Positions 22,711-28,768 of a stretch of DNA of 39,690 bases are shown here, in pieces. Made by a program: the position numbers and the translations under genes. The DNA is from a virus (Duplodnaviria; Heunggongvirae; Uroviricota; Caudoviricetes). Numbering within the stretch: the stretch's first letter is position 1; every line of letters begins with the position of its first letter. The notes beneath the pieces were generated by a model, which saw only the letters and a program-made list of their open reading frames with translations, was not told the DNA's origin and did not search any database. Location of the stretch: the IMG/VR virus record IMGVR_UViG_2734482571_000007; one strand, 5' to 3'.

Positions 22711-24283
22711 CCAGCATCCCCTTCATTTCCGCAGCAAACATGGCATCACTGAGCAGCGTCATCAGGCGGGAATCATCCATTTCACGGTAAAGGGCAGGCA
22801 GGTCTGCCAGTGCCTCCGCCAGCCCCCGCGTTCTGATGACATCAATGACCGGCTCCAGCACCGGATCGATGGCCTCCTGTAAGCGGCGGGCAGGCACCGC
22901 GTCCCCCATGTCGTCCAGTTCATCACGCGGCGTGTTTTTCGCTTCCGGCAGTCGGGCTGAAAGCGCCGTCTGTTCTGTCTTTTCCTGTTTTTCCGGTAGC
23001 GTTTCCCTGTCAGGCATGGCCGGTTCATTACTGCTCTGACGGACACGGAATATGGCTTCACCGGGCGTGGGCTGTGGAATACCGGTCTGATCCCGTACCC
23101 AGGGATCAGGAATATCCATCCCCGCACTGAGTTGCATCACCGCACTGGCTATTTTGGTGATATCCCCCGGTTCTTTGGTCTGGAAACAGATACGCGGCAG
23201 GCGACGGATATCAATGGCGTGGGCGGTGTTCAGGGCATACAGCGGATACACCAGATCGCGGTTCAGGGTTGCAGCCAGCTGGCGTAAATCAGAATCCCTG
23301 ATTTCCCGGCGCACCTCGTTATGCACCTCACCCAGCGAGCGCGCGCCTTTGTCTCCGGCTTCTGTGGTCAGCGTGCCGCCGAGTATTGCTTTGGAGATGG
23401 AACGCTCACCCCACGAAATCATGGTTTCAAACGGATCGGCCTGACCGTTCGCTGCCGCCTGAAACTCCAGCGACATCCCGGCCGGGATGATCCCGCCTGT
23501 ACGTCGCCCGATATCCATCACCGCCCGCATCAGGGCACTTTTCTGCTCCGGTGTTGCCCCGGACGGGTATTTCCCGACCTTCATTGGCAGGCCGTACACC
23601 TCCAGAAATTCCGCCAGATCGCGCACGGAATAGTTTTTGAAAATGAACGGCCAGATAAGCGTTCTGACAAGCCCCGTCGCACCACCGTAGCCGGTGCGTG
23701 AACGCGACTGATGCACTATCCAGCCAAAGGGCTGAAACGCCACCCCGGCATGGCTGCCGTCACGCAGCCGCAGTTCGCTCAAATCATCCGGGTTAAGGCA
23801 GAAATGCCCGCTGTCACGCCAGCGGATGGCGCGGATGATGTGCATTTTACCGAGCATCCCGTGCTCAATTTCCATGCAGGAATAGCCCTTCAGGATGGCA
23901 TCCGTGGCGTCAAACAGCATGGCATCAAACCAGTCTGCGGAATGCAGATATTCGTCGAGCATTTCCGCGTCCTTTTTCTCATTCGCGCTGGCGTTCGGTG
24001 GCGGCTCAATACTCCATGGCACCCCCTGAATGGCAAGACGTCGCTTGCCCAGCTCCGCAAAAAGGTGGGTGTCCTTTTCTTCAATATCAGCGGCCAGATC
24101 GGACTGGGCAATCAGATCGCCACGTTCAGCCCCGCGAAGGCACTGCGCCGCCCGGTTCGGGGTGATACCCGAAGCCGGATGTTCAATATAACGGCTGGCA
24201 ATCTGCGGAATATCCAGCGCGGCACTCTGCATCTCCGGGTCAAAGGAGAAAGGTTTTCCGTCAGTATCAATGATGCGTCCCAC
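22694..24283 (-). CDS. Portal protein (Mu gp29-like)
   Basis: 529 aa; directly after the large terminase gene. Confidence 0.8.
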   Translation of the reverse strand: MGRIIDTDGKPFSFDPEMQSAALDIPQIASRYIEHPASGITPNRAAQCLRGAERGDLIAQSDLAADIEEKDTHLFAELGKRRLAIQGVPWSIEPPPNASANEKKDAEMLDEYLHSADWFDAMLFDATDAILKGYSCMEIEHGMLGKMHIIRAIRWRDSGHFCLNPDDLSELRLRDGSHAGVAFQPFGWIVHQSRSRTGYGGATGLVRTLIWPFIFKNYSVRDLAEFLEVYGLPMKVGKYPSGATPEQKSALMRAVMDIGRRTGGIIPAGMSLEFQAAANGQADPFETMISWGERSISKAILGGTLTTEAGDKGARSLGEVHNEVRREIRDSDLRQLAATLNRDLVYPLYALNTAHAIDIRRLPRICFQTKEPGDITKIASAVMQLSAGMDIPDPWVRDQTGIPQPTPGEAIFRVRQSSNEPAMPDRETLPEKQEKTEQTALSARLPEAKNTPRDELDDMGDAVPARRLQEAIDPVLEPVIDVIRTRGLAEALADLPALYREMDDSRLMTLLSDAMFAAEMKGMLDGSGD

Positions 24284-25950
24284 TACCAGCCCCCCCGATC
24301 AAATTCATGATATGCCTCATCGTCATCACGATAACCGCCCTCCATTGCCCGCGACCGCTCCTGTAGCGCCTGACAGGCTGATTCATCCAGGATGAAGCCC
24401 TCCATGTATGACGCCCGGTTTGCCATACAGAGCGCCACGGCAAAATCACCATGGCGGCGGGCGTTCGCAGCCGTTGCGTTCTGGTCCTTCGTGCGCCCCT
24501 TGTCGATTTGCGGGATACCATTCACTACCTTCACATGGCGCAAATCATCAAGCGTGGTCTGATGGCGGGCGACGAGGATATTCTGATCTTCAAACTCGGC
24601 TTTCAGTTTTGGCATCCACTCGCCGTACCACTTCGGCGACAACATCACGCAGTCGATGATGTCCGGGCCAAAGGCCAGCAGTGCGGCCTCTGCCAGATAG
24701 CCGCCGTTACCGGTGGCGTCGAACGCCGCACCGACCAGCGCCGGAACGCGGGTCAGGATGTACATCATCACCTGTTCCTGCTGGGCATACGGCAGGTTGC
24801 GCAGCTCCACGCGAAACACCTCGCGCTTTGCCAGGGATTCGGTGATTTCCAGCAGCACAAAGCAGGACAGGTCACCGGTGCGGGCAAAGTCTTCCCCGAA
24901 GCTGAAGCGGGAACGGGGATTTAATTTCTCTAAAAGCGGTTTTAAATGTTCTTCACACCAGGTTAAAACTTCCGATTCACGCAGCCATGCGGCACGGCTG
25001 ATGAAGTTGTCCGGGGCTTCAAACGTCAGAATCGGGATGTCGCGGATCATCGCCATTTCAATAAGCGCGTGGGGGATATAGGCACCGCCGGATTTTTTCG
25101 GGATACAGCCGTATTCCTCGTCGGCATCCTCACGGGTCGGGGCGTTTTTGTAGAGATCATCACGCCATTTCTGCTCGCTTTCCGGTGACCATTCCTGATC
25201 GGTGACGTAACAGATACGACGGTACAGCCCGTCCGCAATGGCATCATCCAGGGTTATGCGGTGGACGCTGTAATCCTTGCGCCCCTCGCGGGCTTCCTGA
25301 ATGTACTGATTAAACAGATTATCGACGCCGTTATGCGTGGAGATAATACGCACGCGCGCGCCCCACATAGTGAGCGCCATTGCCGCCTTGAGAAGCTCAT
25401 CCAGTGACTCGTGGAACGCGGCTTCATCAATCACCACATCCCCCTGAAGGCCGCGCAGGTTTGACGGACGGGAAGACAATGCCTGAATTTTGAATCCACT
25501 GTTCGGAAAGCGGATCATGTAGGTCAAAATTTCTTCTTTTTTATCCCGATCCCAGAATGTCTGCTCATACACATCAGCATCTGCCAGCTGGTTAAAGGCA
25601 CGGGAGAACAGCGCGCAGGCAGAAATATATTCCAGCGCCATCTCCTGCTTTGATCCCACATAAAACACATTGCGGCCACCACGACGCTTCGGTTTTGCAG
25701 CAGTAATGACGTTACGCCCGGCTTCCGCCCAGGTAAGACCGGTGCGGCGGGATTTCTCCGCGATGCAGACCTGACTTTCATCTGCAAACCAGCGGGCCTG
25801 ATAATCCAGAAACACCGGCATATCACCGGGCAAATCAAGGCTGTCCGGCACATCCACGCCCAGCAGGGCTTTTTCACCTGACAGATCAATTTTGCGGGGA
25901 GGCGTCATTTGCATCAGTGAAGGCGACGTTTCTCTGGCTTTGTTCATCAT
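24283..25950 (-). CDS. Terminase large subunit (Mu gp28-like)
   Basis: 555 aa; position before the portal gene. Confidence 0.85.
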   Translation of the reverse strand: MMNKARETSPSLMQMTPPRKIDLSGEKALLGVDVPDSLDLPGDMPVFLDYQARWFADESQVCIAEKSRRTGLTWAEAGRNVITAAKPKRRGGRNVFYVGSKQEMALEYISACALFSRAFNQLADADVYEQTFWDRDKKEEILTYMIRFPNSGFKIQALSSRPSNLRGLQGDVVIDEAAFHESLDELLKAAMALTMWGARVRIISTHNGVDNLFNQYIQEAREGRKDYSVHRITLDDAIADGLYRRICYVTDQEWSPESEQKWRDDLYKNAPTREDADEEYGCIPKKSGGAYIPHALIEMAMIRDIPILTFEAPDNFISRAAWLRESEVLTWCEEHLKPLLEKLNPRSRFSFGEDFARTGDLSCFVLLEITESLAKREVFRVELRNLPYAQQEQVMMYILTRVPALVGAAFDATGNGGYLAEAALLAFGPDIIDCVMLSPKWYGEWMPKLKAEFEDQNILVARHQTTLDDLRHVKVVNGIPQIDKGRTKDQNATAANARRHGDFAVALCMANRASYMEGFILDESACQALQERSRAMEGGYRDDDEAYHEFDRGGW

Positions 25951-26195
25951 GCTTTACCTGTCAGAATGCTTTTGATTCGGGACTCAAGCTCTTCAGTCAT
26001 CACGTCCACGCCGCTCAACTCATCAGTGGCAGCCTCTGCCAGCAGCGAATGCAGTTGTTCCAGGGATATTTCCCCGGCAATGCTGAGTTCAGTCAACTCA
26101 CGACATACCTTTATGGTTTCAGGAGGTAACTGTGTTGCAAGACTGAATGCTTTCTGATGGGCACTGCTCATCAGTGAGCGGTTATCTGTTGCCAT
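25947..26195 (-). CDS. Small protein (82 aa) sharing a C-terminal 25-aa motif with the adjacent gp27-like protein
   Basis: AGGAGG ribosome-binding site; C-terminus DELSGVDVMTEELESRIKSILTGKA versus DELRGVDGMSEQIEFRIRQMLLGKA in the upstream gene; about 80 percent nucleotide identity over roughly 37 nt. Confidence 0.5.
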   Translation of the reverse strand: MATDNRSLMSSAHQKAFSLATQLPPETIKVCRELTELSIAGEISLEQLHSLLAEAATDELSGVDVMTEELESRIKSILTGKA

Positions 26196-26205
26196 GATTC
26201 ACCTC

Positions 26206-26787
26206 CTACGCCTTACCCAGCAGCATCTGCCTGATACGGAATTCGATCTGCTCGCTCATGCCATCCACGCCGCGCAACTCATCGGTGACCGCATTCGCCA
26301 TCTCTTCAGCAAATGCGGCCCGGATTTCTTTTTCACGCTTAATGCTGCGCTCGGCGGCACTTTCTGCACGCTGTGCCGACAGGAGGATGTCCTTAATAAG
26401 GCGCATATCCACATCGCTGTCGCTGTTCAGGGATTCGGTGGCGGCACGCAGACGGCGGTACATCAGGGCACGGGACATCTCCAGAATCAGTGCCGTGGTT
26501 TCACCGGTCGGCTTATCCCCCAGTTCGGCCATCATGGCTTTTGTCTGCTCGCGTAAATCACGCAGATTACGGGCAATCAGCTCATTACGGGAGGCTTCCC
26601 GGCTGATGGCCGCCGGTGAGAGCTGCTGCTCTTCCGGCAGACCTGCTTCACGGATCAGACGGTTGATTTCCTCGCGGATCTGGACCTGCGTCAGACGTTT
26701 TTCACGCAGCATTTCCAGCAGCGGCTTACGGATGCTGTCGGGGAGCAAATCCACCTTGCGTACACGGCCACGCGCTGGCTTATCCAT
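26206..26787 (-). CDS. Putative terminase small subunit / DNA-binding protein (Mu gp27-like)
   Basis: 193 aa; position upstream of the large terminase; charged helical protein. Confidence 0.5.
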   Translation of the reverse strand: MDKPARGRVRKVDLLPDSIRKPLLEMLREKRLTQVQIREEINRLIREAGLPEEQQLSPAAISREASRNELIARNLRDLREQTKAMMAELGDKPTGETTALILEMSRALMYRRLRAATESLNSDSDVDMRLIKDILLSAQRAESAAERSIKREKEIRAAFAEEMANAVTDELRGVDGMSEQIEFRIRQMLLGKA

Positions 26788-26789
26788 CG

Positions 26790-27080
26790 TTACCCCCTTG
26801 CGCGTGGTTTCTTCACACCCGGAACGGTGGCGCGGCCTTCCGCCACATCCTGACCCCGGCCGGTCAGTTCAGCGATGAAATAACCGTTAACAAGCGTGCG
26901 CTTACGCACCAGTCCCTGCTCGGCAAGCCAGGCAATGTGGGTATGAACGGTGTCGCGGGACACGCGGTGACCGTAATCATCCAGGCAGTCCTGAAGCACG
27001 GATTCGCCCAGTTCGCCGTTGTAATCCGCCAGCGACCGCAGAATGACAAGACGCTGATCTTCAGTAATGAAATCACTCAT
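26790..27080 (-). CDS. Hypothetical protein (96 aa), possible winged-helix
   Basis: ORF in the operon between the lysis and terminase genes. Confidence 0.45.
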   Translation of the reverse strand: MSDFITEDQRLVILRSLADYNGELGESVLQDCLDDYGHRVSRDTVHTHIAWLAEQGLVRKRTLVNGYFIAELTGRGQDVAEGRATVPGVKKPRARG

Positions 27081-27384
27081 TGTGTTTTTTCCTTACAGCC
27101 TGCTCCAGCAGCAGTTCGTTCTGATGGGAGACGGATTTCAGGGTGGCATTGGTGGCCTTAAGCTCACCGCGCAGGGTGGTGATTTCGATATTGAGTCTGT
27201 TCACCTCCTGCTGCGTGGGCAGGCCGGAAATCCGGCTCTCCACCCGCTCAACCCGGTCGGAGAGTTTTTCAAAGGCCTCGCGGGGGACAAAGGTTTTGCG
27301 CATCAGCGCCATGAAGATCCCCCCGGCTGTGGCCGTTGCCGACAGGATCGGCACGACATAATCTTTAACGATGCTGACCCACAT
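27073..27384 (-). CDS. Membrane protein with N-terminal transmembrane helix and C-terminal coiled coil (lysis-associated, Mu gp25-like position)
   Basis: GGAGG ribosome-binding site; hydrophobic VVPILSATATAGGIFMALM segment. Confidence 0.5.
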   Translation of the reverse strand: MWVSIVKDYVVPILSATATAGGIFMALMRKTFVPREAFEKLSDRVERVESRISGLPTQQEVNRLNIEITTLRGELKATNATLKSVSHQNELLLEQAVRKKHNE

Positions 27385-28267: not shown

Positions 28268-28768
28268 TCAGACTTTCGGCAAATCGTAACGACATAACCA
28301 TTCATCCGCCGAACGGCGGGCCTCAAGACCGGGGAGTTTTACCCCCTTTGAATAAATCCAGCGGATATACTGCTTACAGGACGCGGGCATCTGCCCGGCA
28401 TTGATAAGGCGCAGGAGCGTGGAGTTGCGAAAGTTCGTTTCACCGGCCCAGAAAATCCAGGAGGCCAGCGCCACCGTCTGACCACGGGTAAGCGGCACCT
28501 GAACATGACGATCGATAGCCGCAAAGGCCCATTTCATGTCCTTTTCCAGCAGCTCCAGACACTCTTCATCAGTTTTTGTCATCCCCGGTTTCACATCCGG
28601 GCCGGTATGGCCGTAACAGATGGTGGGGGTGCCGGTGGGATCAATGTACGTGGTGTTTTCTTTCCCTTCCCAGTAGCCGGTGTAGTGCGTGGCAATGGTG
28701 AACGTCCCGGCTCCGGCCAGAACAAGGGCAATCAGCTTTTTACGCAGGGGTGCGGGGAGTTTTGGCAT
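28268..28768 (-). CDS. Endolysin, lysozyme-like, with N-terminal signal-anchor-release (SAR) domain
   Basis: N-terminal weakly hydrophobic LIALVLAGAGTFTIA segment; lysozyme-like core resembling the SAR endolysin of phage P1. Confidence 0.8.
   Translation of the reverse strand: MPKLPAPLRKKLIALVLAGAGTFTIATHYTGYWEGKENTTYIDPTGTPTICYGHTGPDVKPGMTKTDEECLELLEKDMKWAFAAIDRHVQVPLTRGQTVALASWIFWAGETNFRNSTLLRLINAGQMPASCKQYIRWIYSKGVKLPGLEARRSADEWLCRYDLPKV

Follow-up and report, generated by a model that had tools for sequence, protein, structure and literature searches.

The window analysed here, a 39,690-nt stretch of phage DNA, carries two adjacent genes 5' of the large terminase gene whose products, of 193 and 82 amino acids, end in the same peptide. 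The question is what the shorter protein, designated ORF82, is and how it came to bear the tail of its neighbor. In an earlier note on this DNA, the shared peptide was taken as a sign of a common docking motif, for example in two alternative small-subunit-like partners of the large terminase, or of a partial duplication. The features of the junction, all on the minus strand, are as follows:

26206..26787, minus strand: gp27, Mu-type small terminase subunit, 193 aa (PF11985, phrog_426, synteny with Mu gene 27)
26206..26301, minus strand: tail copy A, the last 31 codons of gp27 and the TAG stop, MANAVTDELRGVDGMSEQIEFRIRQMLLGKA
26199..26206, minus strand: Shine-Dalgarno-like sequence GGAGGTGA, 3 nt 5' of the ORF82 ATG
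25947..26195, minus strand: ORF82, 82 aa, probable chimeric accessory ORF, member of phrog_30922
26031..26195, minus strand: orfX-type N-terminal domain of ORF82, codons 1–55, with the motif S-A-H-x-K-A-F and three predicted helices
25947..26042, minus strand: tail copy B, the last 31 codons of ORF82 and the TGA stop, LAEAATDELSGVDVMTEELESRIKSILTGKA
24283..25947, minus strand: gp28, large terminase (TerL), matching phrog_2 and syntenic with Mu gp28
25888..26250, minus strand: variable block (indel hot spot), from a three-haplotype alignment

The genes are tightly packed. The first base of the GGAGGTGA box is the G that ends the TAG stop of gp27, and the TGA stop of ORF82 overlaps the ATG of TerL by one base (TGATG). 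A second in-frame ATG is possible for TerL at 25950. The variable block begins ~15 codons before the end of gp27, includes ORF82, and runs ~20 codons into TerL. In the alignment of the window with a cassette-less haplotype and with the E. coli-type contig L016, the block differed among all three, and the flanks were 91–100% identical.

The identity of the two terminase genes was clear. The gp27 protein matched the full profile of PF11985 Phage_Mu_Gp27 (positions 1–173 of 173; E 3e-33, 116 bits) and phrog_426 'terminase small subunit' (E 2e-54), and the syntenic gene 27 of Mu is annotated as terminase small subunit. TerL matched phrog_2 'terminase large subunit' (E 5e-43). The tail of gp27 is conserved across enterobacterial gp27 proteins. 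In the AF2 model of gp27, which is of low confidence (pLDDT 56), a long helix comes to its end in the tail and is followed by a break at residues 172–178 and a terminal helix at 179–189. A search for a solved structural relative of gp27 found none. Distant gp27 relatives had a similar helix-loop-helix end with a diverged sequence, whatever type of TerL accompanied it, and no clear signal emerged among them that tail type and TerL type vary together.

Pairwise alignment of the proteins and genes confirmed the reported similarity. BLASTP of gp27 against ORF82 yielded a single significant alignment, gapless, between gp27 residues 163–193 and ORF82 residues 52–82 (18/31 identical, 24/31 positive, E 3e-10). 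In an independent profile check, gp27 residues 162–193 matched positions 51–82 of phrog_30922 (E 6e-8). At the DNA level, the last 31 codons and the stop were identical at 63 of 96 nt (z = 8.7 relative to all other 96-nt registers of the window, the runner-up being 46/96). The best 37-nt stretch had 30 identities (81%), as the earlier note had estimated at about 80 percent. The repeat was established by alignment; an automated repeat search missed it, the seeds being too short. In the tail of ORF82, the terminal helix keeps its hydrophobic face (L, I, I, L), and the ending G-K-A is kept as well. It carries the replacements R172S, G176V, and S178T at three residues that are invariant across 11 aligned enterobacterial gp27 sequences.

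Beyond the tail, no similarity between ORF82 and gp27 was detected by BLASTP, and hhalign of the N-domain family of ORF82 against gp27 gave a probability of 0.2%. Partial duplication thus holds for the tail, since the 3' end of ORF82 repeats the final ~31 codons of gp27 in diverged form, but not for the rest of the ORF, which is unrelated. Derivation of the whole ORF82 from the final ~82 codons of gp27, with an N-terminal part diverged beyond recognition, would fit the position directly 3' of gp27, the common ending, and a weak DNA similarity that may reach a few bases 5' of the tail past a 5-nt indel, but we rejected it as highly improbable on the tail-only BLASTP match and the hhalign result, and also because homologues of ORF82 residues 1–55 are separate small genes rather than gp27 fragments and the tail resembles a foreign gp27 allele more closely than the gp27 next to it.

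ORF82 is already catalogued as a member of phrog_30922, a family of unknown function (E 6.9e-52; residues 2–82 against profile positions 2–82 of 82), and is annotated as a hypothetical protein in RefSeq E. coli genomes. It did not match PF11985 even at E values up to 1 (gathering score 28 bits), and it lacks the N-terminal helix-turn-helix-like region and the long central helices of gp27. The AF2 model of ORF82 (mean pLDDT 70) has helices at residues 5–22, 25–39, and 45–58, a disordered linker at 59–65, and a helix at 68–79 in the tail.

Residues 1–55 belong to a tiny family of 55–84-aa proteins, defined in the present analysis and termed orfX, which by sequence comparison is unrelated to gp27. 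They are homologous to a 69-aa protein of Salmonella (BLASTP, E 3e-8) and 54% identical to P0138, a tail-less 67-aa protein of L016. A search of 1.84 billion representative proteins returned 17 matches at E up to 0.001. The top 11 were short proteins and the weakest six were partial matches to longer proteins; full-length matches to the orfX profile were all 55–84-aa proteins of the orfX type. Salmonella, the Yersinia phage Tongde type, and L016 all have homologues of the ORF82 N-domain at the same site. In Mu-like prophages of E. coli, Salmonella, and Yersinia, orfX is always the first gene of a variable accessory cassette, with a start codon 7–10 nt past the gp27 stop and 5' of TerL (seen in the window, L013, L016, L019, Tongde, and IMG/VR loci). 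The gp27-like tail was missing from every sampled orfX member except ORF82. When ORFs of 20 insert-bearing junctions were scored for likeness to the tail, the ORF82 type scored 102 and all others 30 or less. The fusion seems to have arisen once and does not look like a recurring design. These results argue against two alternative small-subunit-like partners, since ORF82 resembles gp27 solely in the tail, its N-terminal 55 residues form a separate family, and the sampled members of that family at the same position do not carry the tail.

The earlier note had held that absence of the 82-aa ORF from relatives would count against its reading, and absence proved to be the prevailing state. ORF82 was present in 25 of 5,426 complete E. 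coli genomes, and ~205 of the ~230 E. coli genomes with this prophage region had an uninterrupted junction without it. It was also absent from Mu, D108, and SfMu and from most Salmonella relatives. At least seven junction architectures were distinguished, one indel state being a 32-nt deletion remnant, and a dip in GC content was observed across the orfX part. ORF82 thus behaves as an accessory ORF whose presence varies among close relatives while the flanks are conserved. The promoter and terminator of its own that mark a moron in the classical lambdoid definition were not found: no sigma-70-like promoter was detected on either strand between 25700 and 27200, and there was no convincing minus-strand terminator 3' of ORF82. 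The gene appears to be read within the late operon. No RNA element was detected at the duplicated junctions (fold z-scores 0.9, -0.5, and 0.6). We conclude that the gp27/TerL junction is an accessory-gene hot spot in enterobacterial Mu-like prophages.

We consider it probable that ORF82 is a recombination chimera formed in this hot spot between gp27 and gp28, and that its tail is mainly a tolerated by-product. The 5' ~165 nt would represent an orfX gene, the first gene of a variable cassette, and the 3' ~80–95 nt a second, diverged gp27 end that would have retained its native stop/start overlap with TerL. The first parent would be an L016-type phage with a cassette, its gp27 tail ending in IEFRIRQMLLGKA and followed by the ribosome-binding site, orfX, and further cassette genes. 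L016 shares with the window the gp27 tail variant and the ribosome-binding site, and is ~80–85% identical to it over the first ~90–110 nt of orfX, the similarity fading afterwards. The second parent would be a cassette-less phage with a gp27 tail ending in LESRIKGILLGKA and overlapping TerL. The gp27 tail nearest to that of ORF82 was indeed found in cassette-less E. coli prophages (75/96 nt, vs. 63/96 for the gp27 tail of the window itself). With the 5' end of TerL included, the best match of the ORF82 tail was the gp27/TerL junction of cassette-less prophages (95/126 nt), and both have the TGATG overlap, which points to an in-frame chimera that restored the native junction. The crossover would have occurred within an in-register Ala-x-Ala microhomology, GCG CAC GCT in orfX and GCG AAC GCG in gp27; the right-hand part of the cassette would have been lost, leaving orfX to read in frame into the foreign gp27 tail. 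A near-identical donor tail was not found among the gp27 sequences, the nearest being 78% identical with dS of about 0.6, and the exact parents and crossover point are therefore inferred. The gp27 tail of the cassette-less haplotype looks hybrid as a protein sequence and was for that reason first considered a recent recombinant of the two tails of the window; this was rejected at 16–31% nucleotide divergence from both, and the direction of events therefore rests on insert-free outgroups.

In the predicted product of such a crossover, a flexible linker joins a three-helix orfX domain to a C-terminal helix that is short, amphipathic, and of the small-terminase type. The ORF82 start is preceded by a strong Shine-Dalgarno sequence, and the ORF82 stop forms TGATG with the TerL start, just as the gp27 stop does in cassette-less phages; therefore, the native translational coupling and the initiation region of TerL were preserved. 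Every ORF82 allele has the same Shine-Dalgarno box at the same spacing, as do the tail-less L016 and the deletion remnants L025 and L030. The tail would stay open because the reading frame must reach the coupled stop. In our reading, some affinity for TerL may remain in the tail, and ORF82 would not be a designed second docking partner.

ORF82 is under weak constraint. Its pN/pS was 0.43, vs. 0.01–0.06 for gp27 and gp26 at the same loci (0.01–0.05 for gp27), and was indistinguishable from neutrality at realistic transition/transversion ratios (p 0.07–0.17). Several observations count against a mere by-product: the eight distinct ORF82 alleles sampled were all intact at 82 aa, the terminal helix has kept its hydrophobic face and the G-K-A ending, and dN/dS of the tail was below 1 (0.31 relative to the nearest gp27 tail, 0.38 among alleles), so some amino-acid-level selection on the tail is possible. 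The gene was retained while gp27 of the same lineage reached a pS of 0.13 with hardly any amino-acid change, and thus ORF82 is old and at least harmless.

The intact alleles and the dN/dS of the tail also fit a functional mimic, in which the ORF82 tail is a docking peptide on TerL and ORF82 acts as a competitor or regulator of gp27-TerL assembly or as an adaptor bringing the orfX domain to the motor; we regard this as possible but rather unlikely. The small terminases of lambda (gpNu1) and P22 (gp3) have TerL-binding C-terminal moieties, and in P22 TerS residues 140–162 bind TerL residues 1–58 (PMC9611059). By analogy, the gp27 tail, a conserved element of its family, is likely a TerL-binding element, and a common docking motif is plausible. 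In both the gp27 and ORF82 tails, a short helix is predicted to follow a flexible linker, an arrangement similar to the flexible C-terminal segment that lies beyond the oligomerization core of gpNu1 and gp3, and the placement and coupling of ORF82 fit co-production with TerS and TerL. However, there is no sequence homology to gpNu1 or gp3, and in ORF82 the segment is borne by a non-terminase protein. The uniqueness of the fusion, the lack of ORF82 in most relatives, the replacement of three gp27-invariant residues, and the weak overall constraint also stand against a mimic. The stronger proposal, that ORF82 is a phage-encoded tail mimic that tunes or gates assembly of the Mu-type terminase or tethers an orfX function to the motor, and that orfX cassettes are unrecognized packaging-associated factors, seems somewhat less likely still.

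It is improbable that ORF82 is a non-functional open frame left by recombination, either untranslated or serving only as a ribosome 'bridge' to TerL. The near-neutral pN/pS would agree with this, as would the weak codon-position bias of substitutions in the orfX part and the GTG start of many alleles. Antisense frames are open too, with an antisense ORF of 135–162 aa over orfX in some cassettes. For ORF82 and the other cassette proteins, Pfam, NCBIfam, and PADLOC gave no hint of function and PHROGs only unannotated families, and Foldseek against the PDB gave nothing below E 3.8. On the other hand, the forward frame was open in all diverged orfX homologues examined (30–54% identical, three genera), the strong Shine-Dalgarno sequence has conserved spacing, and the three-helix fold was modeled with moderate confidence.

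As a probable chimera in a hot spot, ORF82 has a counterpart in the 'morons' of Mu-like Pseudomonas phages, accessory ORFs of 34–100 codons in regions of genomic plasticity (Cazares et al., 2014, PMC4378225). Those morons vary in presence between close relatives, lie at fixed positions between core genes, are often of lower GC content, and are mostly without known function, and some of them benefit the phage, e.g., anti-CRISPR genes (PMC4378225). The gp27/TerL junction shows the same behavior: presence or absence, conserved flanks, and a GC dip. The differences are that the Pseudomonas morons occupy other positions, whereas the insertions described here lie between enterobacterial Mu-like terminase genes, and that one variant here has acquired a copied core-gene terminus by in-frame fusion. 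Compared with gp27 (DUF3486) itself, ORF82 has the last ~31 residues, including the E-x-R-I-x-x-x-L-x-G-K-A helix, and the stop overlapping the TerL start, but not the N-terminal helix-turn-helix region, the long central helices, or the Pfam match. Small proteins that use terminase subunit interfaces to change packaging are also encoded by satellites, which act against the helper phage. SaPI TerS homologues and Ppi are satellite-encoded packaging hijackers. Rpp of the PICIs, likewise satellite-encoded, binds TerS and hijacks packaging (Fillol-Salom et al., 2019, PMC6739421). Unlike these, ORF82 belongs to the terminase operon of the phage itself, with no sign of interference.

These data document the junction of the small and large terminase genes as an accessory-gene hot spot headed by the uncharacterized orfX family. 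ORF82 would be a clean case in which recombination at a hot spot gave an in-frame chimera with a putative interaction peptide of a core protein while the translational coupling of an essential gene was kept. To our knowledge, no structure of the interface between a Mu-type small terminase and TerL exists; if the tail is the TerL-binding element, ORF82 would be a natural 'tail-only' reagent for mapping it. Otherwise, ORF82 is ordinary phage mosaicism with one mildly interesting twist.

The prophage in the window is Mu-like and lies in reverse orientation, with about 90% identity to Mu-like prophages in Stx phages and E. coli chromosomes (1.4 kb compared; 88–89% of the query covered). The late genes near ORF82, an 82-aa ORF located between the Mu-type small terminase gp27 (193 aa) and the large terminase TerL (gp28), are all on the minus strand, in the following order:

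28268–28768, minus strand, endolysin
between endolysin and gp25, minus strand, TraR/DksA zinc-finger protein
27073–27384, minus strand, gp25 (DUF2730)
26790–27080, minus strand, gp26 (winged HTH)
26206–26787, minus strand, gp27 small terminase (PF11985, E 3e-33; phrog_426 'terminase small subunit')
25947–26195, minus strand, ORF82
24283–25947, minus strand, gp28 large terminase (phrog_2)

A 291-aa gp26–gp27 fusion (P0013, one Logan contig) was called in one assembly; a frameshift or a misassembly at the gp26/gp27 gap of 2 nt is the probable cause.

Pairwise alignment confirmed the claim of the earlier note that gp27 and ORF82 end in a common C-terminal tail. In BLASTP, gp27 residues 163–193 and ORF82 residues 52–82 were the sole aligned region (18/31 identical, E 3e-10), and the gp27 tail matched phrog_30922, a profile from ORF82-type proteins (E 6e-8). 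The last 31 codons plus stop were identical at 63/96 nt (z = 8.7 vs. all other window registers; runner-up 46), with 7/7/17 mismatches at codon positions 1/2/3. The best 37-nt stretch (30/37) agrees with the approximately 80% DNA identity noted earlier. On all features but the tail, ORF82 falls outside the gp27 family.

For its N-terminal two-thirds, ORF82 belongs to a distinct gene family, designated orfX, of small proteins resembling ORF82 residues 1–55 and encoded by the first gene of cassettes following gp27. Profile–profile comparison of orfX with gp27 revealed no relation (probability 0.2%). In a Salmonella prophage with 86% identical gp27, a gene for a 69-aa protein begins 10 nt past the gp27 stop; the protein matches ORF82 residues 4–45 (E 3e-8) and lacks a gp27-like tail. 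Yersinia phage Tongde encodes a 58-aa relative of the ORF82 N-domain at the equivalent position. Only a handful of 55–84-aa proteins emerged as convincing matches when 5.8 billion proteins were searched by profile and 1.84 billion cluster representatives were scanned exhaustively with HMMER; all were in post-gp27 cassette contexts where checked. The six weakest HMMER matches were partial, to longer proteins. P0138 (67 aa, ending in ...QLQTLVAHAQSSRRGKT), encoded by the tail-less orfX locus L016, had 54% identity to ORF82 residues 1–55. L016 carries the gp27 tail variant of the window and an identical GGAGGTGAATC-ATG junction; identity to the window is ~80–85% across the first ~90–110 nt of orfX and fades beyond, followed by 119 nt of unrelated sequence and then TerL. 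Many ORF82 alleles (L005, L006, L021, L023, L027–L029) start with GTG instead of ATG after the same GGAGGTGAATC box. GC content dips to 0.47 across the orfX-derived part (window 26050–26199), with 0.55–0.64 in gp27, as would fit accessory DNA gained by horizontal transfer.

Enterobacterial Mu-like prophages have an indel hot spot at the gp27/TerL junction. Among 80 IMG/VR loci plus others, at least seven architectures were found (loci L012–L100), with gaps from −14 to 633 nt.

Gap between gp27 stop and TerL start, and its content
−14 to 7 nt, no insert
32 nt, deletion remnant with mini-ORF MATDWFSYE*
201 nt, orfX-type insert
258 nt, ORF82
267–274 nt, other inserts (orfX-type ORF at 267; no orfX-type ORF found at 274)
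333 nt, L016 type
433 nt, larger cassette
589–633 nt, orfX and further small genes, forward and antisense

In a three-haplotype alignment, flanks 91–100% identical enclosed a variable block (window 25888–26250) reaching from about the last 15 gp27 codons through about codon 20 of TerL. The first ~20 TerL residues (window 25885–25947 and relatives) were hypervariable among haplotypes (MNKARETSPSLMQMTPP, MNNAEELSPLLTNTVST, or MSKRTGEEKIKPDTGLIKLSPP), and TerL was 98–100% conserved from PRKIDL onward; the corresponding region in P22 is the TerS-binding site (PMC9611059). Cassette deletion remnants were observed at L025 (3583–3614) and L030 (near 2475–2510), where an IEFRIRQ-tailed gp27 precedes the same RBS and the first four orfX codons, which directly abut an L016-type TerL upstream region; the nine-codon mini-ORF results. 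Larger cassettes contain antisense ORFs of 61–75 aa (MKEKLTIDQK...) or 135–162 aa (MSPKAIKLLE...), the long one overlapping orfX on the opposite strand. In Yersinia phage Tongde-type cassettes, orfX comes with a second forward gene of 65–67 aa (MKMA(D)EKTK...) matching phrog_21398 (unknown function). The positions of these genes are:

L050 3636–4124, minus strand, antisense ORF
L059 3636–4124, minus strand, antisense ORF
L013 3929–4147, minus strand, antisense ORF
L019 2854–3048, minus strand, antisense ORF
L019 2682–2879, forward cassette gene, phrog_21398 match
L002 1770–1970, forward cassette gene, phrog_21398 match

The antisense ORFs had no match in Pfam or PADLOC. Substitutions between L050 and L059 (8/17/10 on forward codon positions) hint that the constraint there lies on the antisense frame.

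Fusion of orfX to the tail is a one-off: the own-locus gp27 tail scored 102 against ORF82 and at most 30 against all other insert ORFs. The ORF82 tail was closest to the gp27 tail of cassette-less E. coli prophages, in which gp27 is joined directly to TerL (75/96 nt vs. 63/96 for the adjacent gp27; 95/126 nt with the TerL start included). The joint is in register on an Ala-x-Ala microhomology (orfX GTT GCG CAC GCT, gp27 ATG GCG AAC GCG, ORF82 CTG GCA GAG GCT). An illegitimate or microhomology-mediated crossover between unsampled cassette-bearing and cassette-less phages would account for this; the nearest sampled gp27 tail is 78% identical (dS ~0.6).

The two genes that the earlier note describes as neighbours occur together in only part of the relatives, and ORF82 is an optional gene. 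In Mu, D108, SfMu, and the closest phage-database relatives, gp27 is directly joined to gp28 without ORF82. The prophage region was present in 231 of 5,426 complete E. coli genomes, only 25 of which carried ORF82-specific DNA (29 copies). ORF82-negative E. coli genomes have a TGATG overlap of gp27 stop and TerL start, the exact equivalent of the ORF82 stop/TerL start in the window. A single identical gp27 protein (WP_000360580) occurred in the five ORF82-positive genomes fetched; that of three ORF82-negative RefSeq genomes fetched (WP_000360581) differed in the last 13 residues (IEFRIRQMLLGKA vs. LESRIKGILLGKA, respectively) and one N-terminal substitution.

Across six ORF82-positive loci of equal synonymous divergence (pS 0.13), pN/pS was 0.01 for gp27, 0.06 for gp26, and 0.43 for ORF82 (N-domain 0.45, tail 0.38). 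The 27 nonsynonymous and 17 synonymous variable sites of ORF82 were not significantly below neutral expectation (kappa 2–5, p 0.07–0.17). Tail dN/dS was 0.31 between ORF82 and the nearest gp27 tail vs. 0.08–0.17 among genuine gp27 tails. ORF82 retains the terminal helix residues and G-K-A, with changes (R172S, G176V, S178T) at residues invariant in 11 aligned enterobacterial gp27 sequences. All eight distinct alleles were intact at 82 aa, several with a GTG start. ORF82 is thus an old and tolerated ORF under weak constraint.

The AF2 model of ORF82 (11-sequence alignment, pLDDT 70) contained helices 5–22, 25–39, and 45–58, disorder at 59–65, and a helix at 68–79; that of gp27 (pLDDT 56, low confidence) was all-helical with a break at 172–178 and a terminal helix at 179–189. 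In both proteins, the shared segment is predicted as a helix end, a loop, and a short amphipathic helix. Searches by fold and by sequence found no relative whose structure or function is known. The sequence itself shows that, through the fusion, TerL is again preceded by a native gp27-type end, an SD-poor region with the TGATG overlap, and a strong SD (GGAGGTGA) precedes ORF82. Ribosomes on ORF82 would therefore terminate at the TerL start codon, as gp27 ribosomes do in cassette-less phages. The best explanation is that ORF82 is probably a tolerated recombination chimera preserving TerL coupling. We consider it rather unlikely that ORF82 is a functional mimic docking to TerL, a reading drawn from analogy: small terminases of lambda and P22 bind TerL by a flexible C-terminal moiety, with P22 residues 140–162 binding TerL 1–58 (PMC9611059). 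By this analogy, the gp27 tail is the likely TerL-binding element, in which case some affinity for TerL may persist in ORF82.

ORF82 is already catalogued (phrog_30922, RefSeq hypothetical proteins); a limited literature search not aimed at either subject found no description of its chimeric nature or of the orfX hot spot. What is seen here corresponds to the accessory ORFs described for Pseudomonas Mu-like phages in their regions of genomic plasticity (PMC4378225), and the ORF82 chimera and the orfX hot spot are instances of ordinary phage mosaicism.
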